Part shown: in pieces, positions 9,096 through 59,645 of the stretch
Layout: each line of letters opens with the position of its first letter
Position numbering within the stretch: the stretch's first letter is position 1
Source of the DNA: an uncultured delta proteobacterium
Lineage (GTDB): Bacteria; Myxococcota; Myxococcia; Myxococcales; Myxococcaceae
Length of the DNA stretch: 64,000 nucleotides
Assembly: GCA_963771175.1 (NCBI GenBank)
Contig: CAVYSY010000030.1
Coordinates: forward strand, 64,001 to 128,000
Direction of reading: 5' to 3'
The notes under the pieces: generated by a model
Seen by the model: only the letters and a program-made list of their open reading frames with translations
Told to the model about the DNA's origin: nothing
The model's database searches: none
Program-made: the position numbers and the translations under genes

Positions 9096-9163
9096 GTGAG
9101 AACGGGAGTCACACCGTATCCCGCATTCTCGCCGCGATCTTCAATTCGGCACAGACTGAGGGG

Positions 9164-10186
9164 GTGCTCGCTCTCTTCTCCGTGCTCCTGCTCGCCCTGC
9201 CGGCGGGGAAAGGTCCGTCCGCTGCCACCTCCGAGGAGACCTCCCGCTTCGTCTTCGCCTGGCGGGGAGTGCCGGTGGGCACCGTCAGCCTCTCCCTCGC
9301 ACCCGAGGTGAAACGTTTCACCTACACCTCGCGTCACCTGCACACGCGGGGGGGACACAGGGGCGAGCGTGTGCGGGAGGTTTCCCTGGAACTGGGCTCG
9401 GGGGGCACCGTGGTGGGGCGCTCGAGCGTCCCCCAGGCCTTGTGGCTGTGGCGGGGGCCTCCAGCCCTCGGGTGTGTGACGGGACGGGAGGAGCTGTCCG
9501 GCCGGGAGGGACCCCACTGCGTCACCGCCGTCCGGGGAGACACGGTGGAGGGAACTGTGTTCGGCCAGCCCTTCACGGCCCGTTATGACGAGCGCGGCCG
9601 GATGGTGGCGATGGAGGTGGGGGAGTCGCGCTTCACCGAGGTCGCGCCCGGAGTGCGGTTGCGGCCCCCTCCCGAGCTCTTCGCGGATGGGCTGCCCGTG
9701 GAGGGGGAGACGGGCCCACTCGCCTTCTCTCCACCATGGCCGCTCGCGGGGCGTCCCTCCTGGCTGACGGCCTGGCGGGCGGGAGCGGCGCGAGCACTCG
9801 CGGAGGAGGTCCACGCCGCCTTTCCGGAGAAGGGTCCGGGGGAAGCGGATCTCCGCGAGGGCGGCGAGGGCGAGGCGGGAGGGTGCCTGGCCCATGCACT
9901 GCGCTTCGCGGCGCGGGCGGTGGCGCGCGGGCAGCGGGTGGCGTTGGTGCACGGGCTGCTCGTGGTGGACGGGGGGCCCGCCCGGCCTCATGCCTGGGTG
10001 CGCGTGGGCCTCGGGGGTGGGGGCACGTTGGACCTGGACCCCACCTCGTTGGACCCCGTCACTCCGGAGACGCACCTGCCGCTCGCCCTGACCGAGCCCG
10101 GCGGTGCCTCGGTGGAGGCCGGAGAGCGGTGGTTGGCGCTGCTGCGCGGCGAGCACCGCGTGGTGCGCCTCAGTCGAAGGGAATGA
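9164..10186 (+). CDS. Secreted transglutaminase-like (Cys-His-Asp) domain protein
   Basis: Signal peptide; GGCLAHA, HAWV and LDPT motifs. Confidence 0.65.
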   Translation: MLALFSVLLLALPAGKGPSAATSEETSRFVFAWRGVPVGTVSLSLAPEVKRFTYTSRHLHTRGGHRGERVREVSLELGSGGTVVGRSSVPQALWLWRGPPALGCVTGREELSGREGPHCVTAVRGDTVEGTVFGQPFTARYDERGRMVAMEVGESRFTEVAPGVRLRPPPELFADGLPVEGETGPLAFSPPWPLAGRPSWLTAWRAGAARALAEEVHAAFPEKGPGEADLREGGEGEAGGCLAHALRFAARAVARGQRVALVHGLLVVDGGPARPHAWVRVGLGGGGTLDLDPTSLDPVTPETHLPLALTEPGGASVEAGERWLALLRGEHRVVRLSRRE

Positions 10187-11195
10187 TGGACAGCTTCGCG
10201 CCCGCGGGAGCGTCCAGCAGCTCCTTGGTCTTCGCCGGCAGGTAGGCGCTCTTGTCGTCCAGCCGGGCCGTGGTGCGCACCGCGCGGAAGCGGTTGCGCC
10301 CCGACTCGCGCTCGAAGGAGACGAGCACGTCGTCCCCCTCCAGCTCGAAGTCCTCCTCGGCCAGCTTCACCGAGCGGTAGCGGCGCACCAGGGAGATGTC
10401 CGAGAGGTTGGCCTCGAAGTGGGGGCCGCCGTCGAACGGGTCGATGCGCTCCACGTAGCGGAAGCCGATGCGCTCCAGCATCCGCTGCACGCCCTGGGTG
10501 TCGGGGCCCACCTCGCCGAGCACCTTCTGCACGCGGTCGGGGAAGAGCGACGCGTAGATGTCCGAGGAGGGGAAGAGCTCCTTGATGAACTCCTTGTTCT
10601 GCCGGCTGAGGCGATCCGCCTCCTGGTAGGTGAGGCCGGTGAACTTCTTGCCGCACGCCTCCCACAGCAGGCTGCGCCCGTCGGGGAGCAGCGGCGGCAG
10701 CAGCTCGGCGAGCACCCGCGGGCGGAAGATCCGCCTGTGCATGGCCATGAAGAGGAAGCGCACGTAGGAGAGCTGCTTGCCGGGCTTGTCCGGTGTGGCG
10801 CGGTAGGGCGGGTCCACCACCAGGCCGCCGATCTCCGTGGGGCCCTCGTAGTTGTAGCCGATGGAGAGCACCTTGTGCCGGAAGTGCCGGTCGATGCTGG
10901 CCGAGTAGTGCTCGCGCTCGGACACGTCGAGGTAGATGTGCGGCGCCTCGTAGGTGCCGTGCTGCGCGATGATCATCGACGTGCCGATGATGAGCTCGTT
11001 GCGCACGTCCTCCAGGACGAAGAGGTATTCGCGCTCGAAGGGGTCCTTCACCTTGCCCGCGAAGCTCTTCACGGACTTGTCGATGATGGCCTCGAGCGTC
11101 TCTTCGTTGTTGGGCAGGTTGACGGTGTTGAGCACCGCGGCGAGCCGCTTCAGGCCGGGCAGATCGGTCTTCTGGACATCGCGCAGGACGAGCAT
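10170..11195 (-). CDS. astA: Arginine N-succinyltransferase
   Basis: YLFVLED, TEIGGLVVDPPYR, KQLSYVRFLFMA, VLAELL, GFRYVERIDPFDGGP. Confidence 0.88.
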   Translation of the reverse strand: MLVLRDVQKTDLPGLKRLAAVLNTVNLPNNEETLEAIIDKSVKSFAGKVKDPFEREYLFVLEDVRNELIIGTSMIIAQHGTYEAPHIYLDVSEREHYSASIDRHFRHKVLSIGYNYEGPTEIGGLVVDPPYRATPDKPGKQLSYVRFLFMAMHRRIFRPRVLAELLPPLLPDGRSLLWEACGKKFTGLTYQEADRLSRQNKEFIKELFPSSDIYASLFPDRVQKVLGEVGPDTQGVQRMLERIGFRYVERIDPFDGGPHFEANLSDISLVRRYRSVKLAEEDFELEGDDVLVSFERESGRNRFRAVRTTARLDDKSAYLPAKTKELLDAPAGAKLSIIPFD

Positions 11196-11513
11196 GGGAG
11201 CACCTGGGTTCCCCCTGGAGGGGAAACCGCCGAAGGGGGGCACCATACACCAGCCCTGCATGCCGTCAGCCGCCCGCACGCCCTTCTGCTTCGACGCGTC
11301 GCGTCGAGCTGGCTCGCCTGGCCGGTTGACGGGTAGGACAGGCTGTCTCCTCCTCCAAGAAAGACAATCAATGGGAGTCGAACGCCCGGTTGATTGTCTG
11401 CTCTTCTGTCAAGGGAAAAGAAATAACAGTCGCTTGAAATAGAAGAGAAACGTGAGAGCGTGCGCCTGTCGTTGGCTGTCAAACATTCTGCCAAACATTA
11501 GCGAGGGCGCGCC

Positions 11514-12494
11514 TTGGGAAAGCTCCTGGTTTTACTGCTCGCCGTACTGCTGCCGGGGCTGTCGTGGGCCGGCATTGTCTGGAAGGGAGATTTCGAGACG
11601 GGAGACACCTCCCAGTACTCGTCGTCGCAGCGGGTGAGCGCGGACCGGCTCCAGGTGGTGCAGTCTCCGGTGCTCCAGGGGCGCTACGCGCTCAGGGCCA
11701 CGGTGAGGCAGGGGGACGACCCCATCAACTCCAGCGGTAACCGCAACGAGCTCGTCTATCAGGGGGGCGAGAAGGAGGGCTCGGAGTACTACTACCGCTG
11801 GCAGGTGCTGTTCCCGACGGACTACCCCAGCGCGAAGACGTGGCAGGTCTTCACCCAGTGGCACCACGATGGCTGCTGCGGCTCGCCGCCGGTGGAGTTC
11901 TTCGTCTACGGCGAGGAGATCCGCTTCACGCTCACCGACAGCGTGACGCCATGGCAGACGAAGCTGGTGCGCGATGTCTGGCAGGACTTCATCCTGCACG
12001 TGAGGTGGTCGTCGGACCCGAACGTGGGATTCGTCGAGCTGTGGCACAACGGCCAGCTCGTGCTCTCCAAGTACAAGCACGCGACGATGTACGCGGGCGA
12101 CGGCATCTACCTGAAGCTGGGCCTGTACCGCAGTGACACCGTGCAGCCGGTGGGCGTCGTGTACCACGACGGTTTCGTGCAGGCGACGCAGCTCGCGGAC
12201 GTGCTGCCGTCCACGCCCCAGCCCCAGCCGGATGCGGGCACGCCGGCTCCGCCTTCCGACGCGGGCACGCCGGCTCCGCCCTCCGACGCGGGCACCGCGC
12301 CGAGCGACGCGCCGCCGGCTTCTCCGGACGAGGCGACGCCCCCCATCGTCCCCACGTTCCCCCAGCCCGGTGCCACCGACCCGATGTCCCCCGAGGCGCC
12401 CGCGCACTACGGCTGCTCGAGCACGAGCGGTTCGCTCTGGGTGGTGGCACTGCTGGGACTCGGGGGCCTGCTGCGTCGAGTCCGGCGCAGGTAG
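11514..12494 (+). CDS. Secreted polysaccharide-lyase-like (heparin lyase I-like) protein with MYXO-CTERM sorting signal
   Basis: Signal peptide, GDFETG, RNEL, FTQWH, YLKLGLYR; Pro-rich linker; C-terminal GCSSTSGSLWVVALLGLGGLLRRVRRR. Confidence 0.8.
   Translation: MGKLLVLLLAVLLPGLSWAGIVWKGDFETGDTSQYSSSQRVSADRLQVVQSPVLQGRYALRATVRQGDDPINSSGNRNELVYQGGEKEGSEYYYRWQVLFPTDYPSAKTWQVFTQWHHDGCCGSPPVEFFVYGEEIRFTLTDSVTPWQTKLVRDVWQDFILHVRWSSDPNVGFVELWHNGQLVLSKYKHATMYAGDGIYLKLGLYRSDTVQPVGVVYHDGFVQATQLADVLPSTPQPQPDAGTPAPPSDAGTPAPPSDAGTAPSDAPPASPDEATPPIVPTFPQPGATDPMSPEAPAHYGCSSTSGSLWVVALLGLGGLLRRVRRR
12231..12295 (+). repeat. 27-bp tandem repeat (2 copies plus a partial) encoding the DAGTPAPPS linker
   Basis: GAYGCGGGCACGCCGGCTCCGCCYTCC at 12231 and 12258, partial copy at 12285. 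Confidence 0.9.
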
Positions 12495-12583
12495 GCCAGC
12501 GAGCCCGGTCTCGGGCGCACTCGGTGCTACCCGTCCTCGGGGGGGCGTCGTATGAGGAGGAGACCCCCGTGAGGAGACCCGAG

Positions 12584-14095
12584 ATGAGCGACGCGCGTGA
12601 AGGGGCGGTGCCCCACCTGAGCCCCGAGGAATTCCGGCGGCTGGGCCACCGGATGGTGGATTGGATCGCGGACTACTGGTCCCGGTTGGAGTCCTTCCCG
12701 GTGCGCGCGGCGGTGGCCCCGGGCGAGGTGCTGGCGAAGCTGCCCGAGCACCCGCCCGAGGAGGGCTTGGGCGGCGACGCTGGCTGGGAGGTCGTGTTCC
12801 GCGACCTGGAGCAGGTGGTGCTGCCCGGCATCACCCATTGGCAGTCGCCGTCCTTCTTCGCCTACTTCCCCGCCAACGCCTCGGGGCCCGCGGTGCTCGG
12901 CGAGCTGCTGTCCGCCGGCCTGGGCGTGCAGGGCATGCTCTGGTCCACCAGCCCCGCCGCCACCGAGATGGAGACGCGCGTGATGGACTGGCTGGCCGAG
13001 CTGATGGGGCTGCCGGCCTTCTTCCGCTCGGACTCGGGCACGGGCGGCGGCGTCATCCAGGGCACCGCCAGCGAGGCCACCCTGGTGGCGATGGTGGCGG
13101 CGCGCGAGCGGGTGCGGCGCAAGCTGGGCCGGGAGGCGGAGCTGGTGGCCTACACCTCCACGCAGGCGCACTCGTCCGTGCTGAAGGCGGCCATGCTGTC
13201 CGGTGTGGTGCGCGGCGTGTCGGACGACATCCACCTGCGCCAGCTCGGCACGGACGGCCGGTACGCCCTGCGTCCGGAGGTGCTGGAGCAGGCCATTCGC
13301 GAGGACCTCGCCGCCGGCCGCCAGCCCTTCTTCGTGTGCGCCTCGCTGGGAACCACCTCCTCGGGGGCCATGGACCCGCTGCCCGCCATCGGTGAGGTGC
13401 TGGAGGGCACGGGCTTCACCGCCTCGGGGGGCTGGCTGCACGTGGACGCGGCGTGGGCGGGCTCCGCGCTCATCTGCCCCGAGCACCGCGCCATGCTGGC
13501 GGGCCTGGAGGGGGTGGACTCCTTCGCCTTCAACCCGCACAAGTGGTTGCTCACCAATTTCGACTGCAACGCCTTCTACACGCGAGACCGCAAGGCGCTG
13601 CTGGATGCGCTGAGCGTGATGCCGGAGTACCTGCGCAACGCGGCCACCGCCAGCGGCGCGGTCATCGACTACCGCGACTGGCAGGTTCCACTCGGCCGCC
13701 GCTTCCGCGCGCTGAAGCTGTGGTTCGTGCTGCGCCACTACGGTGCCAAGGGGCTGCGGGCCTACATCCGCGAGCACGTGCGGCAGGCGGAGCTGTTCGA
13801 GTCCTGGGTAAAGGGGGACGAGCGCTTCGAGCTGGCCGCGCCGCGCTCGCTGGCCCTGGTGTGCTTCCGGCTGCGGCCGAGGCCGGGCGAGGAGCCCGCG
13901 GCCACGGACGCGCGCAACCGCCAGTTGCTGGAGCGGCTGAACGCGAGCGGCAAGGCCTTCCTCACGCACACCGTGCTGCCCGGGGTGGACGGCGCGCCGG
14001 CGCGCTACGTGCTGCGCATGGCCATTGGCGCCCCACGCACCGAGGAGCGGCACGTGCGCGCGGTGTGGGAGCAGCTCGCCGCGCTCGCCGACTGA
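12584..14095 (+). CDS. PLP-dependent aromatic L-amino acid decarboxylase (group II)
   Basis: GITHWQSPSFFAYFP, QAHSSVLKAA, LHVDAAWAG, DSFAFNPHKW (PLP lysine), DWQVPLGRRFRALKLW. Confidence 0.93.
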   Translation: MSDAREGAVPHLSPEEFRRLGHRMVDWIADYWSRLESFPVRAAVAPGEVLAKLPEHPPEEGLGGDAGWEVVFRDLEQVVLPGITHWQSPSFFAYFPANASGPAVLGELLSAGLGVQGMLWSTSPAATEMETRVMDWLAELMGLPAFFRSDSGTGGGVIQGTASEATLVAMVAARERVRRKLGREAELVAYTSTQAHSSVLKAAMLSGVVRGVSDDIHLRQLGTDGRYALRPEVLEQAIREDLAAGRQPFFVCASLGTTSSGAMDPLPAIGEVLEGTGFTASGGWLHVDAAWAGSALICPEHRAMLAGLEGVDSFAFNPHKWLLTNFDCNAFYTRDRKALLDALSVMPEYLRNAATASGAVIDYRDWQVPLGRRFRALKLWFVLRHYGAKGLRAYIREHVRQAELFESWVKGDERFELAAPRSLALVCFRLRPRPGEEPAATDARNRQLLERLNASGKAFLTHTVLPGVDGAPARYVLRMAIGAPRTEERHVRAVWEQLAALAD

Positions 14096-14107
14096 CCCTG
14101 AGCGGCG

Positions 14108-14455
14108 CTACTGTTCGATGGGCGGCTGCAGCACGCCGAAGCGCTCGATGCCCTGGCGCATGGCCGAGCGCACCGCGTCGAGGATGGCCTGGTCGGAGAA
14201 GTGCTTCACGACGAGGGCGCCAGGGGTGACGAAGGAGGGTGCCCGGTCGAGCTGGCTCCGCAGGTGGTCGAGGGTCAGCAGGGTCAGGCCGAAGCGGCGG
14301 CCGTCTCCCAGGCGGACCATGATGTCCAGGCTGCCTGCCTGAGGCAGGGTGAGGTCGTCGGCGATCAGGATGGAGGCGAGCTTCCCCTCCCCAATGTCGA
14401 TGGAGCGCATGGTGGACCGACCGTAGCCGCCCGCCAGCCGGGGAGGGGGGTTCAT
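14108..14455 (-). CDS. Hypothetical protein (start uncertain: 14455 or 14410)
   Basis: ORF with host-like codon usage (VRLGDGRRFGLTLLTL..FVTPGALVV..GIERFG) between two flanking genes. Confidence 0.6.
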   Translation of the reverse strand: MNPPPRLAGGYGRSTMRSIDIGEGKLASILIADDLTLPQAGSLDIMVRLGDGRRFGLTLLTLDHLRSQLDRAPSFVTPGALVVKHFSDQAILDAVRSAMRQGIERFGVLQPPIEQ

Positions 14456-14573
14456 CGGCGCTTCCGTCCACCGGTGCACCATCCGGTGGGGGCTGCCGAC
14501 GCGGGGGAGACGGTATAGGTTCAGGGCAAGGGAGGAACGCCTGAAGTCACCTCGCAAGCCCACGAAAGAGGAG

Positions 14574-15095
14574 TTGCTCGCCGCGGTGGGGCGGACGATG
14601 CCGGACCTCATCAGCTCCGGGCTGAAGGTCCTCTTCTGCGGCATCAACCCCAGCGTGTACTCGGCGGTGGTGGGCTACCACTTCGCGCGGCCGGGCAACC
14701 GGTTCTGGCCGACGCTGCATGCCTCGGGCTTCACGGAGCGCCTGCTGGCGCCCTGGGAGCAGGAGGAGTTGCTCGCGCTCGGCTGTGGCATCACCAACGT
14801 GGTGGAGCGCGCCACGGTCTCCGCGGACGTGCTGACGGCCGAGGAGCTCGCCCAGGGCGGGCGGCGGCTGGAGGCGAAGGTGCGGCACTACCGGCCCCGC
14901 GTGCTGGCGGTGCTGGGCATTGGCGCCTGGCGCACGGCCTTCGGGCACCCGAGGGCTTCGTTGGGGCCGCAGCCGGAGACGCTGGGCGGGGCTCGCGTCT
15001 GGGTGCTCCCCAACCCGAGCGGCCTCAACGCGCACTACCGGCCAGCGGAGCTGGCGCGGCTGTTTCGCGAGCTGCGTGTTAATTTCCAGGGGTGA
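14574..15095 (+). CDS. mug: G/U mismatch-specific DNA glycosylase (start may be further upstream, 14541)
   Basis: VLFCGINPS, HFARPGNRFW, GITNVVERAT, VLPNPSGLNA. Confidence 0.92.
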   Translation: MLAAVGRTMPDLISSGLKVLFCGINPSVYSAVVGYHFARPGNRFWPTLHASGFTERLLAPWEQEELLALGCGITNVVERATVSADVLTAEELAQGGRRLEAKVRHYRPRVLAVLGIGAWRTAFGHPRASLGPQPETLGGARVWVLPNPSGLNAHYRPAELARLFRELRVNFQG

Positions 15096-43908: not shown

Positions 43909-45334
43909 ATGGCCGAGGAACGGACGTACCTGGAGCTGTCCGAAGAAGGTGGCGGCTCGCACAAGTTCTACGAGGTGAGGCTGGAGGGCAACTCCCTCAC
44001 GGTTCGCTATGGCCGCATCGGCGACAAGGGTCAGACGCAGGTCTCCAGCTTCCCGTCCCCGGAGAAGGCGCTCGCCGAGGCTCGCAAGAAGATCAACGAG
44101 AAGGTCCGCAAGGGCTACGCCCCCGCCGTCCAGGGCCTGCGCGCGAAGCGCTCCGTCACCCGCCGTGAAATCACCAGCGGCCGCTCCAACGCGACCCAGG
44201 CCCCGCTCCTCTGGAAGTTCAACTCGGGCGACCGCGCCTTCGGCATCTTCGTGGACGACTCGCGCTGCTGGGTCGGCAACGAGAGCGGCTCCATCTACTC
44301 GGTGGACCACGAGGGCCGCACGCTCTCCCAGTTCCGCCTCGCCGATGGCGTGAAGTGCATCGTCGCCGATGACCGCTGGCTCTACGCCGGGTGCGATGAC
44401 GGCCGCGTCTACGACCTCGGCGGCAAGGTGCCGCGCGTGGCCTATGCCGATCGCGGATGACGTGGACATCTTCTGGCTGGACATCAAGGACGGAGTCCTC
44501 GGCGTGTCCGACGCGGGCGGCAAGCTCACCGCCATCAACCACGAGGACGAGTCCCAGTGGGTGAAGCAGAGCGTCGGCACCCACGGGTGGATGGTGCGCT
44601 GCGATGAGCTGGGCATGTACCACGGCCACGCGCGCGGCCTCACCATGTACGACTGGGAGGACGGCCGCGAAATCTGGCACCGCCCCACCCAGGGCAACGT
44701 CATGTTCGGCTGGCAGGAGGAGTCGAGCCTCTACGCCTGCACCAACCTCGGCTTCGTGCACCGCTTCACCAAGAAGGGCGACGCGGGCCCCGTCATGCAG
44801 TGTGACGCGGCGGTGTTCTCCTGCGCCGCGGTGGATGACGGCCGGTACGTCTTCGCTGGCGACAACATGTCCAGCGTCTACTGCTTCAACCACAAGGGCG
44901 AGCGCCTGTGGAAGCTGTCCACCGGGTGCGGCTCGGCCTTCTCCATGCAGTTCTTCCAGGACCGGCTCTACCTCGTCACCACCGAGGGCGTGCTCGCCTG
45001 CATCGACGCGAGCGAGAAGGCCATCCAGGCCGCGCAGTCCGGCTCGCTGCCGCAGGCCCGCAGCATCCAGGCCCCCAAGCCCGTGGAGGCCGTGCCCGCA
45101 GGCATCGTGGAGACGACGCGCGAGGCGGGCAAGGGCGTCATCGTGGAGTGCTACCAGGACGGCCCCCACCTGCGCGTGCGGGTGGTGTCCCCCGGCTACC
45201 ACTCCGACTGGCACGTGCAGTTCCCCAAGGACATCCGCCAGGCGGGCAGCCGCTACGTGGTGGAGGGCGTCCACGAGTCCGCGCGTGGTGGCTTCTACCG
45301 CGCCCATGGCGACATCCGCAGGCTGGTGAGCTGA
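43909..45334 (+). CDS. WGR-domain protein with WD40/PQQ-like beta-propeller; apparent frameshift near 44447
   Basis: N-terminal SHKFYEV..VRYGRIGDKGQ..EKVRKGY (WGR); propeller-like repeats (WLYAGCDDGRVY, YVFAGDNMSSVYCF..GERLWKL). Confidence 0.85.
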
Positions 45335-45335
45335 C

Positions 45336-48300
45336 GTGAAACTGCTCGAGCAGGTGACGCTGCTCTTCCAGGAGGGGAAGAGCGACAAGGTGTACGAGGT
45401 GGACCTCCTGGAGGTCTCCCCGGGCCAGTGCGTGGTCAACTTCCGCTACGGGCGGAGGGGCACCGCGCTCAAGGATGGCTCGAAGACGCCCGTGCCCGTG
45501 CCCCAGGCCGAGGCGAAGCGCGTCTTCGACAAGCTCGTCCAGTCCAAGCTGGACTCGGGCTACCTGCGCGGCGGCGCACCCGGTGCTCCCGCCTCGCCGC
45601 CCGCGTCCCGTGCTCCCGAGCCCCCGCCTCCGAGGGTGGAGGCTTCGGCCGGCACCTCGCCTCGCGAGCGCACCCTGCTCCAGCAGCTCCAGCAGGAAGC
45701 CACTGCCCGGCGGTGGTTCCGTCGCGCCGACGTACGTGCCCAGCCTCGCAAGCTGGAGCGTGTCATCTGGCGCGCGGGCGAGCTGCGCCTGCGCGCCGCC
45801 GAGCCCCTGTTGCTGCCCCTGCTGGAGCGGGCCCAACCCCTGCGCGCCTACAGCATCGCCGCCGCACTGGGGCGCCTGGGCTCGGAGTCCTCGGTGTCCG
45901 CGCTCGGGCGGCTCTATGGGGAGGCCTCCACGCCGGACATGGTGCGCCGCATGGCCACCGAGGCGCTGCTGCAGCTCTCCGACGAGGCCACCCGCGCCGA
46001 CTTCCGCCGGGACGTGCTGGAGAAGCTGCCTCCCGCGTTGCGCGAGCCGGCCCGGGCCGGGAACGCGGAGGCCTTTGGCCAGGCGCTCGACGCGCACCTC
46101 GCCTCCGGGAAGGCGGACGCGCTCGACGTCCTCGAGTCCCTCTATCTGGTGGACTCGGAGACGGTGCGGCCCGTGCTGCTGCGCGTGCTGCGCACGGTGC
46201 CCTTCACCGTGCAGTCGGTGCGCGTGCTGCGCCACCTCTTCAAGGCGGCCGAGTACCGGCGCGACGGCGAGGTGTTCGGCCTCATCGCCTGGCGCTACGA
46301 GAAGGAGCGCTCGCTCGGGGCCAGCCGGCCGCGCGCCTACACCCTGGATACGCGCAAGTACCTCCGGCGCCGTGTGTGGCGCACGCTGCGCCGCCTGGGT
46401 GAGTTGGAGAGTCCGGACTTCGTGAAGATGGCGGTGGGCGTGCTGCTCGCCTTCAGCGACGCGGACGCGGTGCCCGTGGGCACCTCGGGCTGGAACTCCA
46501 AGACGTACTGGGACGCCTACGCGCCCTACTGGGCCTTCAACCAGGTGCTGTACGCGGAGAGCCCGCGCTACGAGCCCATTCCCAATCCGCTCCGCTTCCG
46601 CTGCAAGGGCTCGTTCCGGCCCGGAGAGCGGGCGCCCGACATCCGCGAGGAGGCCTTCCCCAAGCTGTGGGAGCGCACCCCGGCGGGCCTCCTGCACCTG
46701 CTGGACGAGAGCCGCTGCGCCCCGGTGCACGAGTTCGCCGCCCGCGCGCTGCGCGCCTGCCCGGACTTCCTCGCCCAGCTCGACGTGGACGTGCTGGCCA
46801 TGCTGCTGGAGCGGCCCTACGAGGCCACCGCGCGGCTCGGCTTCGAGCTGGCTTCTCGGCGGCTGGATGCGAGGCGCGAGCCCCGGGCCCTGCTGCTCGC
46901 GGTGGCGCGCTCGGTGTACGCGCCCGCACGCCAGCAGGCCTTCCGGTGGATGGACGAGCTGCGCCATGTCCTCGTCGAGGACTCCGGCTTCGTCGCGGGG
47001 CTGGCCACCGCGCCGCACGCGGAGACGCGCGCCTACGCCGCCAACATGGTGCGAGGCTCCGTGCTCTCCGCGCAGACGATGCAGGCGCTCGTGGGTCGGC
47101 TGGTGGCGGCGCTGCTGCCGATGAAGTCGAAGGAGGACGGCCCCGTCGCCGCGGACGTGGCCCGCGTGGTGCTCGCCGCGCTGGGGCCCTCGTCCCGGGC
47201 GGTGGGGCTGGACGTGGTGCGCGACCTGCTCGCCCACCCGGTGCCCGAGGTGCAGGAGTTGGGCGGCGAATTGCTCCTGCGCCGCGACCTGCGCACCGAG
47301 CCCGTGCCGGACGAGCTGCTCCAATTGTTGGTGCAGGCGGAGCACGCGCCGCTCCGGGCCCTTGGTCTGCGGCTGCTCGCGCTCCTCGCCGAGTCCGAGG
47401 CCACGCTGCTCGCCCAGGAGGAGCTCCTCACGCGACTGGCCACCAGCCGCGTGCCGGACGTGCGCGCCGCGGTGCGCCCGCTGCTCGGGAGACTCGCGGC
47501 CGCGAGCCCCGCCGTGGGGGCGCGGGTGGTGGAGGCCCTGCTGGCCGCGCTGCTGCGTCGTCGTCTGCCGGAAGGTGTGCCGGCCCATGTGGCCTCGGTC
47601 CTCTCGGAGGAGCTGGCGCCCGCGCTGGCCTCGCTGCCGGCCGAGACGACGTGGCGGCTGCTCGATTCCGAAGATGCCGCCGCGCAGGGCGTGGGGGCCG
47701 CGCTGCTCGCCCGCCGTGGCGCGGAGCTGGCGGTGGACGTGCCTCGCGTGGCGAAGCTCGCCGGACATGACGTGCTGGCGGTGCGCGAGTGGGCGTGGCG
47801 CTGGCTGGAGGCCCACATTTTCGAGGTGCGCACGGAGCTGTCCACGGCGGTGGGCCTGCTGGACTCGCGCTGGGACGACGCCCGCGCCTTCGGCTTCCGC
47901 TACTTCCGCGAGCGCTTCGCTCCGGAGGACTTCTCCCTGGAGGTGCTCGTCTCCGTGGCGGACAGCGTGCGCAAGGACGTGCAGGCCTTCGGGCGGGACA
48001 TGCTCACGCGCTCGTTCCGCGAGGAGGACGGGCCCGAGCTGCTCCTGCGCCTGTCCGAGCACCCCGCGCCCGCGCGTGCAGCTCTTCGCCACCAACTACC
48101 TGGAGCGCTTCGCCAGTGGGAAGCCGGCGCTGGTGGAGCAGCTCGCGCCGTACTTCATCCGGGTGCTGAGCCAGGTGAACCGGGGCCGCGTCGCGCGGCA
48201 GCGGGTGCTGGGCTTCCTCCAGCGCGAGGGCCGGAGCACCGAGGCCAGTGGCCGCGTGGCCATGGAGGTGCTGCACCGGATGTCAGCCACCATTGCTATA

Positions 48301-48408
48301 GAGCATCGGGCCGCGGCGCTGGAGGCGATGCTCGTCATCGCCAAGGCGCAGCCGTCCATTCCCATGCCCTTCCACGTTCGCCCGGTGGAGGTCCGCCGTG
48401 CAGTTTGA
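45336..48408 (+). CDS. WGR-domain protein with long HEAT/ARM-like helical repeats; apparent frameshift near 48072
   Basis: SDKVYEV..NFRYGRRG..KLDSGY (WGR); Leu/Ala-rich helical repeats (LLAHPVPEVQELG, LLDSRWDDARAFG). The C-terminus VQLFATNYLE..VRRAV ends at 48408 in another frame. Confidence 0.82.
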
Positions 48409-50047
48409 ATACTCCTACAAGGGCAACACCGCGGTGCAGAACCGGGGAGACAGCACCGAGCTGTCATTCGCGCCGGACCTCAAGCGGCAGCCCACCTTCT
48501 TCTCCGGCGAGCTGCGTCAGAACGTGGCCTTCCGCGAGGCCATCTCCGCGCTCCACGACGTGGTGGTGTCGGACCTGCGCTTCAAGCCCAAGGACAAGAC
48601 GGCCTACAAGGCCTGGGCGGCGCAGCGCGACGAGACGCTGGACGTGGAGGCCGTGCTCGCCAACCGCCAGGCGGTGGCCAGCCGGATGAAGGCCCTGCGC
48701 GAGGAGCTCACCGAGCTGGAGAAGGAGAGCTCCCGGCGCATGAGCGCCTTCTACTCGGCGCGCACGCGTTACTACCAATACCTCTACGAGAAGAACCGCG
48801 ACTTCTGGTTCGTGTTCGACCCGGTCATCACCGTCCACCCGGACGAGTGCTTCTTCGAGTGCTTCAGCCAGGACGAGTCGAGCTACGGCCGGCTCGGCGC
48901 CAGCTACGAGGTGTTCCAGAACGTCGGCGAGTTCGCCTGCGGCACCACCAACATCGACTACTCGTCGCCGCTCTACGACGAGTTCCAGAAGATCCGCACG
49001 TACAAGCGCACGCGCTTCGAGGTCGACCCGAGCGGCTTCACCACGCGGACGGGCACGGACGAGGCGTACAAGGAGGTGAAGATCGACCTCCCGGACTCGT
49101 GGGTGCGCGGCTTCCTGCAGGTGAACTCGGCGATGGCACTGCCGGCGGTGCGCTTCACGCTGCACCCCATGGATGTGCACAACTTCCTCTTCGTGCTCAA
49201 GCGGCACAAGGAGAAGAAGGGCCCGCGCTCCATGCGCTACAAGCTGGCGCCGGGGCAGCCGGTGAAGGTGGTGTTCGAGCCCTGGGGCACGGAGGTGGTC
49301 TGCCCGCGCTCGGTGTACGAGGGCGAGGGTACGCACGACATCCGCGTGTGGGGCCGCCGGCGCCTGGGTGTGCTGGAGCGGCTCATCCCGGTGGCGAAGC
49401 GCTTCACCGTGCACCTGCTGGGCTCGGGGCTGCCGTCCTTCTACGTGGCGGACCTGGGCGACCTGTCCTTCACCCTGGGCCTGTCCGGTTGGACGGCCAA
49501 TGACTGGTCCACCGCGGGCAACTTCGACCTGATGGCGCCGCGCGGGCAGGTGGACGAGTTCACCCGCCGCCGCGTCTTCGACGCGCTCAAGGAGACGTGG
49601 TCCGCGAGGCCCGAGGCGCTGGCCTCGAAGCTGGGGCTGGACCGGGGCGCGGTGCTCGGCGCGCTCTCGGCCTGGACGCAGGCGGGGCGGGCCATCTGGG
49701 ATTTGAACAAGGGCGTGTACCGGGCGCGCGAGCTGAGCCGCGAGCCGCTGCCCATGGACAGGCTGCGCTTCGCCAACGAGCGAGAGGAGCGCGCCACGCG
49801 CTTCCTGGATGCGGGGGCGGTGAGTGTGTCGGCGCGGCCCTCCAGCACGGATGGCTCGCTGGAGCTGAGCGGCTCGGTGAAGGAGGGCGGGAAGGTGCTC
49901 CGTCCCACTTTGCGACTCGACGGGGACCAGCGTATGGTTTTCGGCGAGTGCACGTGCAACTTCTTCCAGCAGAACAAGTTGTTCCGGGGGCCGTGCGAGC
50001 ACCTGCTCGCGCTGCGGCTCCAGCACTCACGGGTGTCTCGCACATGA
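48398..50047 (+). CDS. SWIM zinc-finger protein (retron-associated type)
   Basis: DPVITV, FFECFSQDESSYG, GTTNIDYS, LPDSWVRGFLQV, LGLSGWTANDW, C-terminal ECTC..GPCEH (CxC-Xn-CxH). Confidence 0.88.
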   Translation: MQFEYSYKGNTAVQNRGDSTELSFAPDLKRQPTFFSGELRQNVAFREAISALHDVVVSDLRFKPKDKTAYKAWAAQRDETLDVEAVLANRQAVASRMKALREELTELEKESSRRMSAFYSARTRYYQYLYEKNRDFWFVFDPVITVHPDECFFECFSQDESSYGRLGASYEVFQNVGEFACGTTNIDYSSPLYDEFQKIRTYKRTRFEVDPSGFTTRTGTDEAYKEVKIDLPDSWVRGFLQVNSAMALPAVRFTLHPMDVHNFLFVLKRHKEKKGPRSMRYKLAPGQPVKVVFEPWGTEVVCPRSVYEGEGTHDIRVWGRRRLGVLERLIPVAKRFTVHLLGSGLPSFYVADLGDLSFTLGLSGWTANDWSTAGNFDLMAPRGQVDEFTRRRVFDALKETWSARPEALASKLGLDRGAVLGALSAWTQAGRAIWDLNKGVYRARELSREPLPMDRLRFANEREERATRFLDAGAVSVSARPSSTDGSLELSGSVKEGGKVLRPTLRLDGDQRMVFGECTCNFFQQNKLFRGPCEHLLALRLQHSRVSRT

Positions 50048-50315
50048 GAAGGGGGAGGGTTCGCGCACGCGGCGGTCAGGGGGCAGTACCTTGCAATCCG
50101 GACGGTGTTTCGCCGTCCATGCCTCATGGCCTGTCATGCATCACTGGCCCGCTCTTCACTGTGCGGAGCCTCCCTCCCTGTCGCGGCAGCGATGTCGACC
50201 TCGTCGGTCCTGCGCGCGACAGGGAGGGGGCTCCGCTGGAGTTGAGACGGTCCAGTCCCGAGAGCAGTACGAAGGTGCTCTCTGACCGCCGCGTGGACGG
50301 ACTCTCCCCCTCTCA
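50045..50315 (+). ncRNA. Retron msr-msd non-coding RNA
   Basis: a1/a2 inverted repeat: perfect 14-bp core 50066-50079/50282-50295, extending imperfectly to 50045-50085/50276-50315. msr hairpin 50100-50118; long msd hairpin 50163-50236. Lies immediately 5' of a retron RT. Confidence 0.88.
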
Positions 50316-50325
50316 CTGACCCGCC

Positions 50326-51918
50326 ATGTCCTCCCAGCCTCCCCGCAGCAGACAGGAGCTGTACGACCGCATCCGCGCCGGCTCCAAGGACGAGGTCGTC
50401 CTCGAGGAGATGGTGCGCCTGGGCTTCTGGCCCGCGCGCAGCGGCATTCCCGGGGACCCGGCGGACGTCATCCACCGCCGCAACGAGCTGCAGGGGCAGA
50501 TTCGCGCGCTCGCCACCGAGCAGAGCCGGCTCGGCAACCTGGAGGCGATGAAGCGCGAGCTGCTCAAGCGGCGGCTGGAGGAGAGCCGGCGCAAGCAGCA
50601 GGAGACGAAGGAGCGGCGCGAGCGCGAGCGGCAGCAGCGCGCCGAGGCCTGGAAGGAGCGCAAGGCGAAGGAGGTGCTCTTCCTGGGCCGTGGCGTGTCC
50701 GGCGGCCTGAGCGAGCGCACTGCGGACGAGGTGAGGCTGGCGCGCCTGGGTTTGCCGGTGCTGGCCACCCCCGAGGCGCTGGCGCAGGCGCTGGGGCTGA
50801 GCGTGGGGCAGCTCCGAGCCCTGTGCTTCACGCGCACCGCGTCCACCACCAGCCATTACGTGCGCTTCCTGCTGCCCAAGAAGACGGGCGGCACCCGGCT
50901 CATCTCCGCGCCCCTGCCGAGGCTGAAGGCAGCGCAGGCGTGGGTGCTGGAGAACCTGCTGAAGAAGGTGCCTGTCCACGAGGCGGCGCACGGCTTCCGT
51001 GAGGGGCGCTCCATCGTCACCAACGCCCTGCCGCACGTGGGCGCGGGCATGGTGGTGAACCTGGATCTGAAGGACTTCTTCCCCTCGGTGCTGTACCCGC
51101 GGGTGAAGGGCGTCTTCGCCAAGCTGGGCTACAGCGAGGCCACCGCCACGGTGCTGGCGCTGCTGTGCACCGAGCCGGACGTGGAAGAGGTGGAGCTGGA
51201 CGGGCAGCGCTGGTTCGTCACCCAGGGCAAGCGGCGACTGCCCCAGGGCGCGCCCACATCTCCCGCGCTGACGAACATCCTCTGCCGGCGGTTGGACCGG
51301 AGGCTCGCGGGCGCGGCGCGCAAGCTGGGCTTCGTCTACACGCGCTACGCGGATGACCTCACGTTCTCCGCCCACGGGCCGGGGCCGCATGACGCGGGCG
51401 AATTGCTGCGGCTCGTGCGCTGGGTGGTGGGGCAGGAGGACTTCACCCCGCACCCCGACAAGACGCGCGTCCTGCGCCGGGGTCGGCAGCAGGAGGTGAC
51501 GGGCGTCGTCGTCAACGACAAGCCCGGCGTGGACCGCAAGACGCTCAAGCGCTTCCGCGCCCTGCTGCACCAGCTCGAGAAGACCGGGCCCGAGGGCAAG
51601 CGGTGGGGCCACAGCGGGGACGTCATCGCCTCGGCGGTGGGCTTCGCCAACTACGTGGCCATGGTGGACCCCGGGAAGGGCAAGGCGCTGCAGGCGAAGG
51701 CTCGCGCGCTGGAGTCCCGCTACGGGCGCCGCCCCGTCGCACCGCCTCGCGCGAAGAAGGTGGCCGCGCAGGCCGGGAGCACCGTGGCCGCGCCCTCGGC
51801 GGTTCCCTCCGCGGTCCCGGCCCAGGCTCCCGAGGCCCCGGTGGCGCCCGTGAGCAGCCCGAAGACCGAGGAGACACCCGCCGAGGCTCCGAAGAAGAAG
51901 TGGTGGAAGCTGTTCTGA
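50326..51918 (+). CDS. Retron reverse transcriptase (Mx162-like)
   Basis: PKKTGGTRLISAP, AAHGF, region X NALPH, LDLKDFFPS, LPQGAPTSP, YTRYADDLTFS, region Y QEVTGVVVN. Confidence 0.96.
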   Translation: MSSQPPRSRQELYDRIRAGSKDEVVLEEMVRLGFWPARSGIPGDPADVIHRRNELQGQIRALATEQSRLGNLEAMKRELLKRRLEESRRKQQETKERRERERQQRAEAWKERKAKEVLFLGRGVSGGLSERTADEVRLARLGLPVLATPEALAQALGLSVGQLRALCFTRTASTTSHYVRFLLPKKTGGTRLISAPLPRLKAAQAWVLENLLKKVPVHEAAHGFREGRSIVTNALPHVGAGMVVNLDLKDFFPSVLYPRVKGVFAKLGYSEATATVLALLCTEPDVEEVELDGQRWFVTQGKRRLPQGAPTSPALTNILCRRLDRRLAGAARKLGFVYTRYADDLTFSAHGPGPHDAGELLRLVRWVVGQEDFTPHPDKTRVLRRGRQQEVTGVVVNDKPGVDRKTLKRFRALLHQLEKTGPEGKRWGHSGDVIASAVGFANYVAMVDPGKGKALQAKARALESRYGRRPVAPPRAKKVAAQAGSTVAAPSAVPSAVPAQAPEAPVAPVSSPKTEETPAEAPKKKWWKLF

Positions 51919-51945
51919 GCCGGGCCTCGCGGTAGGTTCGCCGCC

Positions 51946-52203
51946 GTGAACGGGAACGGGAACGTCGTTGTCGCGGTGCTGGTGGTGGTGGGGTTGGTCG
52001 GGCTCATCTTCTGGGCCCTGCGGTTCTTCAATCCCGTCAACCGCCTGCGCAACCAGTACTTCCGCAGCGTCCGCCAGACGCGCCCGGAGGCCGAGCAGTC
52101 CCTCGCGCGTCACCTGGCTCGCCTCCAGGAGCGTTACCCCGGCAAGTCCGAGGCCTGGTACCTCCGCCGCGTCCTGGCCGATCTGGAGCGCGATCGGCGG
52201 TGA
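51946..52203 (+). CDS. Small single-TM hypothetical protein
   Basis: N-terminal hydrophobic helix followed by RYPGKSEAWYLRRVLADLERDRR; 27 bp after the RT stop. Confidence 0.65.
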   Translation: MNGNGNVVVAVLVVVGLVGLIFWALRFFNPVNRLRNQYFRSVRQTRPEAEQSLARHLARLQERYPGKSEAWYLRRVLADLERDRR

Positions 52204-53157
52204 TGGGTGGAAGGTTTCCTGAGCAGGCGCCGAGCGGAGAGCCCGCCCGCGTTTTGCTAGAGAGTACCCTCATGGCAGGGCAGGACTGAAGGGGGAGCCA
52301 CCATGACCCGAGAGCAGAGCAACGAGGTGACGTTCACCTCGATTCATTTTGAGAACTTCAAGGCGCTGGCCTCGTACCGCGTCCCCCTGCAGCGGATGAA
52401 TGTGCTTGTCGGAGCCAACAACTCGGGCAAGTCCACGGTCATCGCCGCGTTCCGGGTACTCGCTGCGGGCTTGCGTGCAGCCCGAGCGCGCTCACCTACT
52501 CCTTTCGACGGTCCGGGTGGACAGACACGTTGGGGCTGGTCCATCCCAGTTGATGAGCTGCCGATCTCCGTTGAGAACGTCCACAGCGACTACAACGATC
52601 GTCCATCTACCGTCACCTTTCATCTGTCGAACAAGAACAGGCTTCTGCTGTGGTTCCCCACGGAGCGTGGCTGCTTCCTGTTCCATGAGAGCGAGGGGAC
52701 CGCGATTCGGACTCCGAGCGCCTTCAAGAAAGCCTTCCCCGTTACCGTGGGCGTCGTTCCGGTCCTTGGTCCCGTGGAGCATGAGGAGCGGCTGGTCGAG
52801 TCAGGGACGGTGACTCGCGGACTCGCGACTCATCGAGCGTCCCGTCACTTCCGCAGCTTCTGGCGCCACTTCCCCGAGCAGTTCGAGGAGTTCGCTGCAT
52901 GGGTCCGGGAGACTTGGCCGGGCATGGAGATCAACCCGCCGGAAGAGGTGGTGATACAGGACGGCGCGCGCCTCTTCACGAACCTCTCCATGTTCTGCCG
53001 AGAGGAGCGCATTGATCGGGAGCTGTATTGGGTGGGGTTTGGATTCCAGATCTGGTGCCAGTTGCTCACCCATATCGTCCGCAACCGAGCATCCACCCTG
53101 CTCGTTCTCGACGAGCCGGAGACCTATCTCCACCCTGACGTGCAGCGAAAGCTCCTA

Positions 53158-54363
53158 GTGGACTGTCCGCGAAGTAATTCGACATAGTCAGGAGTGATGC
53201 CTGTCCACCCAATCGTGCATTTTGGGACGGGTCCAGGACCAAGTGAATGGGTGGGCGTAGAGGCGGTTGTACTCGGGCCAGCTCGCTTCGAGGTGGGCGA
53301 TGAGCTCGGAGCGGCTGGTCCAACTCCCTCGCTGGAGGTAGCGCTCTCCGAAGGCGCGCAGCAGTAGTTCGGCCTGGTTGAGCCAGGAGGAATGGGCCGG
53401 GGTGAAGAGCACCCGGACCTGGGGGTAGCCGTGCCGCAGGAAGTCATGCGTCTCCTGGGCAATGTGGCTGGAGCCATTGTCCCAGATGAGATGGATGCGT
53501 CGCGCCTCCCGGTGCTCTCCAAGCAGATGGGGCAGCACGGCCCGCAGACAGGCCCCGTCGTTGCGCTCCAGGTGCCAGCCTCGCATCCGTCCGGTGGGCA
53601 CCACCAGCTTCGCCAGGAAGTTCACAGTGCCATGTCGGATGTACTCGAACTCCTGTCTCTCGATGAGACCCGGCTCCATCGGGTGCGTAGGGCGACTGCG
53701 CTCCAGCACCTGGAGGTTGGGGAGCTCGTCCAGGCACAGCACCACCTCGCCCCTCTCGGCCAGGGACTGCGCGCGCTCGTAGCACCAGAGAACCTTCGCC
53801 GCCTTGTGGCGGAAGGTGTCGTCGGGGATGGGAGTCCTCCAGTAGCGGGAGCGGTGGGGTTGCAACGCAGCGTCCCGAAGGATGAGCGCCACGGTCGAGT
53901 GGGAGAGGGTCGGCGCGATGCCCTGAAGTCGAGCCGCCAGGGCCAGGCTGCGAGTGGACCAGTGGGTCATGTGCAGGCCAATGCCCGCTGGCTCACAGCA
54001 GGCCAGCCGCTCCACCTCGACGCGCTGGAGGGGGGGAAAGCCGCCGCGGGCGGCCTGGGCGAGGCGCATCATCGACGACCTCTACGCCCCGTTGCTCGAA
54101 GCGGCGGCACAGGGCCCAGATGGTCGTACGGTCCAGCTCGAGCCGGTCAGCCAGCTCCGAAACGATGGTGTCCGGCTCGTTCATCGCCAGCAGAATGCGT
54201 GCCCTGCGCGCGATGCGCTGCTCGATACGTCCGTCTCGTACCAGAGCCTCAAGGTAGGTGACCTCTGCTGGTGAGAGGTGGACAAGTCGCGGGGGGCGTC
54301 TCCTCATCCCACAGAGCTATGCATTCCCTGCGACTATGTCGAATTACTTCGCGGACAGTCCAC
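53158..54363 (-). mobile_element. IS630-family insertion sequence, 1206 bp
   Basis: Perfect 32-bp terminal inverted repeats (53158-53189, 54332-54363), TA duplication (53156-53157, 54364-54365) in a CTAG target. Confidence 0.95.
53188..54307 (-). CDS. IS630 transposase in two overlapping frames
   Basis: ORF A HTH (RRARILL..RFEQRG..DDAPRPGRP); ORF B DDE (CLDE, EYIRHGT, IWDNGSSH, FTPAHSSWLNQAE, PFTWSWT); TTTCCCCCCC at the junction near 54030-54039. Confidence 0.92.
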
Positions 54364-59024: not shown

Positions 59025-59645
59025 ATGGAGAGCCTGGACTCGCGCCTGGAGAACCTGGAGCGCCGCTGCCGCCGCCTGCAGTCCCTGACCTTCGCCGCGC
59101 TCGTGCTGGGGGCGCTCGGGGTGGGCACGGCCACGCTGCGTCCGCTGTCGTCTGGCGGGGAGTTGGTGGCCTCGCGCCTCACCCTGCGGGACGCGCAGGG
59201 CCGCACGCGCGCCACCCTGTCCGCGCAGGGCGGCGAGGGCGGCCTGGTGCTGCACGACGTCCAGGGCCGGCCCCGGGCCCTGCTGGGCGTGGATGCCAGC
59301 GGCTCGCCCCGGCTCCGCTTCGCCACCGCCGAGGGCGCCTCGCTCGCCGAGCTCACCGTCTACTCGGACGAGGCCCCGCGCCTCTCGCTCGGGAAGAACG
59401 GCGGCACCGAGTTCTTCTCCGTGGGGCTCATGTCCGATGGCTCCTCGCGCCTGGAGCTCGCGGACGAGGACGGGCGCCCGCGGGCCATCCTCGGCGCGGA
59501 CGAGCACGGCTCTCCCGGGCTGATGCTCGTGGACCGGAAGGGACAGCCCCGCGCCTCGCTGCGGGTGTCTCCCAAGGACGAGGCGAGCCTCATCCTCGAG
59601 GGACAGGACGGCGCGGTGTTCCGGGCCCCGACTCCCGTGCAGTAG
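59025..59645 (+). CDS. Hypothetical membrane-anchored protein with L-x-L-x-D-x-x-G-x-x-R-A repeats
   Basis: Coiled coil and TM helix, then repeated LRDAQGRTRATL / LHDVQGRPRALL / LADEDGRPRAIL / LVDRKGQPRASL. Confidence 0.75.
   Translation: MESLDSRLENLERRCRRLQSLTFAALVLGALGVGTATLRPLSSGGELVASRLTLRDAQGRTRATLSAQGGEGGLVLHDVQGRPRALLGVDASGSPRLRFATAEGASLAELTVYSDEAPRLSLGKNGGTEFFSVGLMSDGSSRLELADEDGRPRAILGADEHGSPGLMLVDRKGQPRASLRVSPKDEASLILEGQDGAVFRAPTPVQ

Follow-up and report, generated by a model that had tools for sequence, protein, structure and literature searches.

A type XIII retron of an Archangium-like myxobacterium with an optional WGR-propeller gene and a SWIM partner of predicted sliding clamp fold

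How might a retron act through partner proteins that lack a recognizable toxic enzyme domain, and where are the boundaries of such a system to be drawn when its gene block starts with a gene that is not a listed component of its class? Both questions are raised by a block of genes on contig 30 (CAVYSY010000030.1) of the genome assembly GCA_963771175.1 of an uncultured delta proteobacterium (9.83 Mb, 58 contigs, 81.7% completeness). We analyzed a stretch of 64,000 nucleotides of this contig (positions 64,001 to 128,000 of the forward strand; hereinafter, the window, to which all coordinates refer unless another contig or locus is named). The block occupies positions 43909-51918 of the + strand and consists, in this order, of genes for a WGR-propeller protein, a WGR-HEAT protein and a SWIM protein, a 270-nt structured RNA, and the gene for a reverse transcriptase (RT), all co-oriented. 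The first retrons ever found, Mx162 and Sa163, belong to type XIII, and the explanation that best accounts for the present locus, to which we assign a probability of roughly 0.8, is an intact retron of the same type, residing in an Archangium-like host and including the WGR-propeller protein as an optional component.

Layout and classification of the retron block

The genes of the block are tightly packed. The WGR-propeller gene (43909-45334, + strand; start codon ATG, stop codon 45332-45334) is separated by a gap of 1 nt from the GTG start codon of the WGR-HEAT gene (45336-48408, + strand; stop codon 48406-48408), the end of which is overlapped by 11 nt by the SWIM gene, also starting with GTG (48398-50047, + strand; 549 amino acids (aa)); the noncoding RNA gene, denoted msr-msd (50046..50315, + strand; delineated by fold and covariation), and the RT gene (50326-51918, + strand; start codon ATG, 530 aa) complete the block. 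The gene positions, the shared orientation, the gap and the overlap had all been claimed in an earlier note on this DNA, made from the sequence alone, and were recovered when the coordinates were re-derived. The end coordinate given there, 52203, turned out to take in an 85-aa open reading frame (ORF) that the note left unnamed, and the last of the genes named there, that of the RT, ends at 51918. In all five frames between 43909 and 52203, the GC content of third codon positions (GC3) is 0.88-0.96, and the codon usage is native and high-GC; the 278-nt spacer between the SWIM and RT genes has no codon periodicity (GC 0.65, 0.70 and 0.68 by position). A scan for promoters and terminators yielded no signal above shuffle expectation and is uninformative on the transcript.

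That the locus is a type XIII retron, as the earlier note had suggested, appears virtually certain. The best PADLOC models for its proteins are WGR_XIII (1.2e-301), SWIM_XIII (3.2e-235) and RT_XIII (7.2e-189), with the RT scoring 626.6 bits vs 333.6 bits for the next-best PADLOC RT model. According to the main text of Mestre 2020 (PMC7736814), type XIII combines RT clade 10 with two partner proteins, one of which carries a DEDE motif, a winged helix and a C-terminal SWIM finger of the form CxCx12CxH (cluster 114 type), whereas the other one is a WGR-like HEAT/ARM repeat protein (cluster 216 type); the members of the class named there are Ne144, Mx162, Mx65 and Sa163, which are also given as validated producers of multicopy single-stranded DNA (msDNA) under the names Retron-Nex2, Mxa1, Mxa2 and Sau1, respectively. 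We assign the locus to this class because the best PADLOC models are those of type XIII and the partners match the ones in Table 1 of that paper. The likeness extends to the N-terminal extension of the RT, the winged helix, finger and DEDE pattern of the SWIM partner, the location of the WGR-HEAT/ARM gene directly 5' of the SWIM gene and of msr-msd between SWIM and RT, and the myxobacterial host with vertical inheritance. The class was thus already defined in 2020, and what we describe is a variant with an extra operon gene.

The RT contains NALPH (the NAxxH motif of region X) and VTG (region Y), just as the earlier note reported, along with YADD; in the portions of Mestre 2020 and Simon 2019 that deal with these enzymes (PMC7736814; PMC6868368), NAXXH and VTG are the hallmarks of retron RTs. 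The protein matches Pfam RVT_1 (1.6e-21), is preceded by a charged N-terminal extension of ~135 aa, and has the RT of Ec86 as its closest solved structure (E 7e-46). The WGR-HEAT protein (~1023 aa after read-through of a frame change discussed below) aligns through residues 1-912 with profile positions 1-865 of WGR_XIII, and the frame downstream of the change matches positions 863-972 of the same profile (3.1e-39); the Pfam matches of this protein, to WGR and HEAT_2, are weak.

The closest relatives of the RT are found in Archangium spp. (84-90% identity), followed by Hyalangium and other Archangiaceae (73-77%); beyond this family, relatives are scattered over many phyla at 48-67% identity, including the Nannocystis copies at 55-58%. 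An RT ortholog is present in 12 of the 12 genomes of the genus and, with this assembly included, in 25 genomes of the family (171 other family genomes were scored). Because of the presence in all 12 genus genomes and the native codon usage, the locus appears to be chromosomal in an Archangium-like myxobacterium and vertically inherited. Judging by the RT identities, the closest named relatives of this copy within type XIII are probably those of Nannocystis, on the Ne144 side, rather than Mx162, so the label 'Mx162-like' used in the earlier note is too loose: the RT is only 48-49% identical to the 485-aa RT_XIII protein encoded elsewhere in the same genome, vs 55-58% for Nannocystis.

The fold of the msr-msd RNA is well supported. 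Inverted arms of 36 nt each (50050-50085 and 50276-50311, + strand; 83% complementarity) form the outer a2/a1 stem, and the consensus version of this stem begins at 50046, inside the SWIM stop codon, and ends ~10-14 nt 5' of the RT start codon, in agreement with the extent proposed from the sequence in the earlier note. The folding energy of the spacer is -186.2 kcal/mol, vs -127.0 +/- 5.7 kcal/mol for 200 shuffled sequences (z -10.4), none of which folds as well (0/200). Inside the outer stem lie an msr hairpin (50100-50118, + strand) and a long msd hairpin (50163-50236, + strand), the latter within the helices 50132-50160 and 50240-50272. An RNAalifold consensus of 17 sequences from the Archangiaceae family includes 99 pairs; compensatory double changes affect 21 of these, mainly in the msd hairpin and the outermost stem. 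For 20 spacers linked to RT_XIII genes in Myxococcota, Acidobacteriota, Alphaproteobacteria, Bacteroidota and Cyanobacteria, the consensus has 50 pairs, 33 of these with double changes, and the sequences of the msr core and the msd base are conserved across these groups. No Rfam family matched the RNA, the only hits being chance ones (mir-8515, with 27.8 bits vs a gathering score of 100, and naRNA4).

According to Simon 2019 (PMC6868368), the priming G either marks the end of the stem or follows it immediately, typically in an xAGx context, which is CAGC in both Mx162 and Sa163. Because the CAGT at the inner end of the stem fits this rule, G50086 (+ strand) is a candidate priming guanosine, and we infer that it is preferable to the alternative, G50093 (+ strand), which lies in the invariant TTGCAA; a G is located 1-4 nt 5' of the conserved CCTTGC in 20 of the 20 aligned spacers.

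The earlier note described the system as complete, and indeed, all parts are present, but two frameshifts, probably assembly artifacts, were overlooked. Compared with four orthologs each, the WGR-propeller and WGR-HEAT genes both contain a single additional base that changes the frame, near 44449 in the former and near 48075 in the latter. On either side of each shift, GC3 is 0.88-0.96 and the identity to orthologs is 85-94%, and all 21 full-length orthologs of the WGR-propeller gene are single open frames. The orthologous locus of Archangium gephyra is intact. We compared four public sequencing runs of relatives that are ~98% identical and contain 0.44-0.66 of the sampled words of the region. 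The extra base at 44449 is missing in 4 of 4 of these runs, and that at 48075 in the 3 of 3 runs that cover the position (in X3, by 7.07 of a depth of 9.47; X5 has no coverage there). Furthermore, in the same assembly, at 92475-100856 of contig 25, the reading frames of two essential genes are broken, with rpoC in 4 pieces and rpoB in 3. Because rpoB and rpoC also are split, and close relatives lack both extra bases, we consider it very probable that the two bases are assembly errors and that the native locus is intact; the public assembly needs correction at positions 44449 and 48075. Given these frequent indel errors, any frameshift in this genome is suspect. A separate tblastn comparison with one ORF of locus L012 shifts frame at ~59474-59483 of the window, reflecting either a further indel or a spurious ORF of the kind that arises in high-GC sequence.

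The WGR-propeller gene

The protein encoded by the first gene of the block (~474 aa after read-through) matches Pfam WGR (1.9e-21) and propeller families. The AlphaFold2 (AF2) model of an intact ortholog (L013; 16 sequences; mean predicted local distance difference test score (pLDDT) 86.6) consists of a WGR domain (1-70), a propeller (~100-366) and a small all-beta C-terminal domain (CTD; ~400-474). Foldseek searches with this model retrieved only generic WD40/BamB propellers, and the CTD alone gave nothing significant in Pfam and best scores of 0.76, below the useful level, in the ESM Atlas. This fourth co-oriented gene sets the locus apart from type XIII as previously described: it has no PADLOC match or model, is not among the clusters of Table 1 in the main text of Mestre 2020 (PMC7736814), and goes without mention in the main text of that paper or of the 2026 SPIRE survey.

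The gene is present in 13 of the 13 assessable Archangiaceae-like loci and in 7 of the 63 other RT loci, or 4 of 25 when loci are limited to those in which the three core genes are complete and flanked on each side by 1.5 kb of sequence or more. When linked, it is always co-oriented with the retron genes, but it occupies four different positions in type XIII operons of three phyla, namely, 5' of WGR-HEAT (L036, L043 and L050), between WGR-HEAT and SWIM (L077, with gaps of 33 nt and 14 nt), between SWIM and RT (L029), and 3' of RT (L027); in L030, it accompanies the RT alone. In a survey of 401 Myxococcota genomes, the distributions of the WGR-propeller gene and the RT ortholog within the family coincide, each being found in 25 genomes, one of which is the present assembly. 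The gene is rare, with 28 of the 401 Myxococcota genomes containing it, nearly all as retron-linked copies, and 8 of 201 genomes of Cyanobacteria. Three genomes with a retron locus that lacks the gene have no copy elsewhere, and in two genomes in which the locus includes it, this copy is the only one. In a maximum-likelihood tree of 43 WGR-propeller proteins, the retron-linked copies fall into three clades that match their hosts (Bacteroidota, Acidobacteriota and Archangiaceae), and the retron-link label requires 3 changes on the tree, a number matched by only 4 of 500 shuffles. Finally, in the cyanobacterial locus L075, the C-terminus of the RT is fused to a 75-aa CTD of the WGR-propeller family.

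The presence of this gene in type XIII operons seems to be a new observation. Because members of this family are also encoded on their own where the genome has no retron, we conclude that the WGR-propeller protein is an optional add-on that was repeatedly drawn into type XIII operons from a widespread, mostly autonomous family. The earlier note counted the gene as part of the system, but it does not figure among the listed components of type XIII, is optional, and comes from a family that also lives without retrons; exclusivity to retrons, which we considered, is rejected given the solitary cyanobacterial loci and a lone Archangiaceae copy. A functional coupling to the retron nevertheless seems likely from the gene neighborhoods. 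The fusion of CTD and RT, found in one lineage (L075), points to a physical contact that is open to testing, and the CTD probably docks on the RT or on msDNA.

Some of these loci have features of their own. L030, from Sphingobacteriales, contains, at 7170-15035, a DUF58/VWA gene, the WGR-propeller gene, a spacer of 256-296 nt (depending on the RT start), the RT gene, a 214-aa ORF and the gene for a 700-aa patatin-like protein, in this order. Neither a SWIM nor a WGR-HEAT gene lies within 10 kb, and RTs of this clade may here have other partners. The CTD-fused RT gene of L075 (10001-11626), which belongs to the RT_XIII clade, has a WGR_XIII gene on the opposite strand and a PD-DExK gene nearby; a search of the surrounding 10 kb revealed no SWIM gene. 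Apart from retron loci, the CTD occurs twice in tandem within a 622-aa ORF on contig 2 of the assembly that contains the window (106508-107059, - strand) and in ~610-aa proteins with a VWA domain (P0003, P0007, P0013 and P0014). Judging by these sequences, the CTD is a mobile module that pairs also with VWA domains.

The SWIM protein and possible modes of action

The SWIM protein matches Pfam SWIM (2.4e-4), and its C-terminus carries the finger CTCx12CEH, which conforms to CxCx12CxH. Its AF2 model (27 sequences) has a pLDDT of 74.3, with low-confidence stretches at residues 1-10, 58-91, 128-140 and 213-231. Residues 34-366 of the model resemble sliding clamps: VIA-align superimposes them on 217 of the 245 residues of PCNA (3aix_A) with a Z score of 16.1 and a root-mean-square deviation of 2.7 Å, chains of PCNA and of the 9-1-1 complex score between Z 16.1 and 13.6, and beta clamps between 11 and 12.7. 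The top 50 Foldseek matches of the model are all sliding clamps, the best one being a PCNA (E 2.7e-8). As modeled, each protomer would contain two tandem clamp-fold domains, the two-domain fold common to PCNA, Rad9-Hus1-Rad1 and the beta clamps. The sequence identity to clamps is 6-14%, and the predicted structure differs from them by a long inserted helix (~84-132), the fusion to a winged helix (residues ~384-450; Z ~10 vs winged helix-turn-helix domains) that is followed by the SWIM finger, and an invariant cluster of acidic residues. The model thus suggests that residues 34-366 of SWIM_XIII adopt a fold similar to that of PCNA and 9-1-1, which seems to be new: title-level literature searches found no link between SWIM_XIII or retrons and clamps or PCNA, and those for WGR, SWIM and MoxR returned only noise or unrelated uses of these words. 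A prediction for a complex of three copies of residues 34-366 scored 0.00 vs a mark of 0.42, with no controls run, and is neutral on the existence of a ring. That the protein grips DNA in a clamp-like manner is conceivable, although we put it at somewhat below even odds.

The acidic residues D141, D149, E154 and D187 are invariant, and E226 nearly so, among the 27 sequences, which come from many phyla; the resulting pattern, Dx7Dx4Ex32D...E, sits within the clamp-like region. The main text of Mestre 2020 (PMC7736814) reads this pattern as a nuclease-like or transposase-like DEDE motif. No recognizable toxic enzyme domain was detected in any of the partners by Pfam, NCBIfam, PADLOC or fold searches, and NCBIfam has no family for any of the three partner proteins. 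These searches agree with the earlier note, which saw no obvious toxic enzyme domain in the partners, although the DEDE reading of the SWIM protein had already been published. The retrons with solved structures (Ec86/Eco1 of type II-A, Ec78/Ec83 of type I-A, Eco8 and Ec67/Eco2) have a homologous RT core (E 7e-46 to 7e-10) and share a general logic in which a particle of RT and msDNA is bound to partner proteins. Their effectors, however, are recognizable enzymes (NDT, PtuAB ATPase-HNH, OLD nuclease and Toprim), unlike the partners in the window.

In the mechanism that we envisage, the whole gene block would be transcribed as one unit, and the RT would start from a guanosine, preferably G50086, where the outer stem of 36 bp ends on its inner side, and copy the long msd hairpin into msDNA. 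The large nucleoprotein complex proposed in the earlier note, in which WGR and SWIM domains would read msDNA or damaged or phage DNA, is likewise hypothetical. The resulting RT-msDNA particle might be held by the partner proteins, with the SWIM protein gripping duplex or junction DNA via its PCNA/9-1-1-like clamp, winged helix and zinc finger. WGR reads nucleic-acid ends in PARP, and the WGR-HEAT protein conceivably serves as a scaffold whose WGR domain sits on a DNA or RNA end; the WGR-propeller-CTD protein would be the optional fourth component. Phage infection might then disturb the msDNA and thereby change the state of the complex, in which the only candidate for an active site would be the cluster of invariant acidic residues in the SWIM protein. 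The boldest version of this scheme is that type XIII retrons act via a clamp rather than a toxin, with SWIM_XIII gripping or encircling the unusually long msDNA hairpin or its branched junction and two WGR proteins, WGR-HEAT and, in some lineages, WGR-propeller-CTD, reading DNA or RNA ends; the acidic cluster on the clamp would then serve as an active site or a switch of a novel type, and the WGR-propeller-CTD protein a free-standing end sensor that was captured at least three times. Taken as a whole, this version, which builds on predicted structure, is improbable. If the clamp idea is true, a non-enzymatic mode of action based on DNA topology would be added to retron biology, and if it is wrong, the conserved locus would remain a good specimen for the cloning of a type XIII system; either way, the combination of clamp fold, winged helix and zinc finger provides a structural hypothesis for the SWIM partner.

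Several considerations weigh against the reading of the locus as an intact retron with an optional fourth protein. The evidence on the system comes from sequence and predicted folds, and no study of the function or structure of any type XIII retron was found in the literature searched. Sequence searches of solved structures revealed no relative of the SWIM protein or of the WGR-HEAT protein, and the mechanism is not known to be solved, as the earlier note remarked. Besides, the clamp idea derives from one AF2 model, and a similar fold need not mean a similar function. The runs used to check the frames represent relatives rather than the source strain, which leaves room for real, strain-specific frameshifts; should both frameshifts be real, the retron would be decaying in this strain, with truncated WGR-propeller and WGR-HEAT proteins. 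It fits such decay that both clearly assignable frame changes in the 39-64 kb stretch hit retron partner genes, that these runs contain only part of the sampled words, and that the neighboring ATPase gene is already broken by a transposase. Nevertheless, decay is highly unlikely in view of the fragmentation of the essential rpoC and rpoB genes, which betrays frequent indel errors, the incompleteness of the assembly (81.7%), the coding-like GC3 and high ortholog identity on both sides of the shifts, and the intact state of all full-length WGR-propeller orthologs. The other way in which the system might be smaller than we propose is that the WGR-propeller gene is a mere conserved neighbor in Archangiaceae, where its adjacency could be inherited synteny, so that the retron would be an ordinary three-protein type XIII system. 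The family is certainly widespread and autonomous: a CTD query matched at least 562 protein clusters, mostly ~474-aa WGR-propeller proteins of actinomycetes and cyanobacteria; none of 8 cyanobacterial WGR-propeller loci has a gene for an RT, a SWIM protein or a WGR-HEAT protein within ~9 kb, and the neighbors at the 7 of these loci that were scanned are unrelated housekeeping genes; in 4 of 5 such cyanobacterial genomes, a retron-type RT is absent at E <= 1e-20; and one Archangiaceae genome harbors a second, solitary copy. Among the 25 assessable core loci outside Archangiaceae, 21 lack the gene, and the absence of the family from PADLOC and from the two main texts cited above points the same way. 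Against this stand the placement of the gene inside the operon in L077 and L029, 3' of the RT in L027 and alone with the RT in L030, the three separate clades of retron-linked copies, and the fusion in L075; because the gene is found in so few genomes of Myxococcota and Cyanobacteria (see the counts above), repeated chance adjacency is very unlikely. The neighbor-only interpretation therefore seems doubtful to us.

Two further alternatives concern function rather than composition. Strict vertical inheritance and native codon usage suit a domesticated cellular role equally well, and the locus could encode an msDNA machine that works in DNA metabolism, development or the stress response and not against phages. 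Presence in every genome of the genus with conserved synteny is what would be expected in this case; the main text of Mestre 2020 (PMC7736814) gives a correlation of 0.78 between type XIII and 16S and suggests that some retrons have been domesticated, and the text of Simon 2019 (PMC6868368) cites the vertical inheritance of myxococcal retrons. The failure of Pfam, PADLOC and NCBIfam to reveal a toxin-like domain is compatible with such a role too, and factors of DNA repair typically contain modules such as clamps, WGR domains and winged helices. However, the solved retron structures matched in the RT search all belong to defense retrons, the same RT clade is scattered over many phyla, the paralogous locus on contig 54 contains an inserted candidate defense system, PDC-M17, and just 3' of the present retron there is a variable island with the remnant of an OLD/Gabija-like ATPase gene and a transposase, which is missing in other Archangium. 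To our knowledge, every retron type tested so far acts in defense. An anti-phage role is, by analogy, somewhat favored, and domestication is the less probable outcome. The second alternative is that the SWIM protein is a transposase-derived DEDE nuclease, as Mestre 2020 proposed, and the toxic effector, with a likeness to clamps that is incidental. The (near-)invariance of the acidic pattern is the kind of conservation that is typical of active sites, and type XIII is placed among the nuclease-linked retrons in the main text of Mestre 2020 (PMC7736814). Yet, the acidic residues lie within the very region, 34-366, that aligns with clamps at Z scores of 11-16; there is no RNase H-like transposase among the listed VIA-align and Foldseek matches of the model; and neither Pfam and NCBIfam nor a sequence search of solved structures yielded a nuclease or transposase match. 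We therefore consider the nuclease interpretation unlikely and retain the intact type XIII retron, with the acidic cluster as a candidate site within a predicted clamp.

Paralogous retrons and genomic surroundings

The same genome contains two further RT_XIII genes, on contigs 54 and 58, to both of which the RT in the window is 47-49% identical; by this measure, the window copy is a lineage separate from both. The locus on contig 54 (L087, 9200-19881, - strand) is a retron of the Mx162 type that consists of a 485-aa RT, SWIM_XIII and a giant HEAT-ARM_XIII protein. It resembles the retron in the window in having RT_XIII, SWIM_XIII and a HEAT/ARM partner gene 5' of the SWIM gene, the SWIM proteins being 34% and the RTs 48-49% identical, but differs in that the partner is HEAT-ARM_XIII (PDLC02919) instead of WGR_XIII, in that tblastn found no WGR-propeller gene in the 19.9-kb stretch, and in that the PDC-M17A/B genes, a candidate defense system, are located between the SWIM gene and the RT gene, together with one unassigned 533-aa ORF. 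The possibility that the locus in the window is Mx162 itself was considered and rejected, given that its nearest relatives are those in Archangium and that the 485-aa RT_XIII belongs to a separate locus of the genome. The third RT_XIII, a 379-aa ORF on contig 58 (L088, 9918-15741, - strand), has as its sole type XIII-like neighbor a 958-aa protein with a weak match to HEAT-ARM_XIII, and the 10 kb around it yielded no SWIM gene.

The 85-aa ORF that follows the RT gene (51946-52203, + strand) encodes a protein with a hydrophobic N-terminal segment and, with a GC3 of 0.91, is a real gene by codon usage, even though it matched no family in Pfam, PADLOC or NCBIfam. It is found 3' of the RT only in Archangiaceae-like loci (41-92% identity by tblastn), at a distance of 3.5 kb from the RT in L021. 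The island that comes next, between 52.3 and 56.7 kb, is missing from the compared Archangium genomes and has a lower GC content, with synteny resuming at 56686. It starts with the gene for an AAA_21/AAA_15 ATPase of the OLD/Gabija/PtuA kind (52303-53187; best PADLOC matches NsnB, AriA, Old and GajA) that ends after the Walker B motif at 53187, where a DDE_3 transposase gene begins on the opposite strand (53188-54072). On the other side of the retron, a 183-nt divergent spacer separates the block from a small ORF and a gene for an AMP-binding enzyme, both on the opposite strand.

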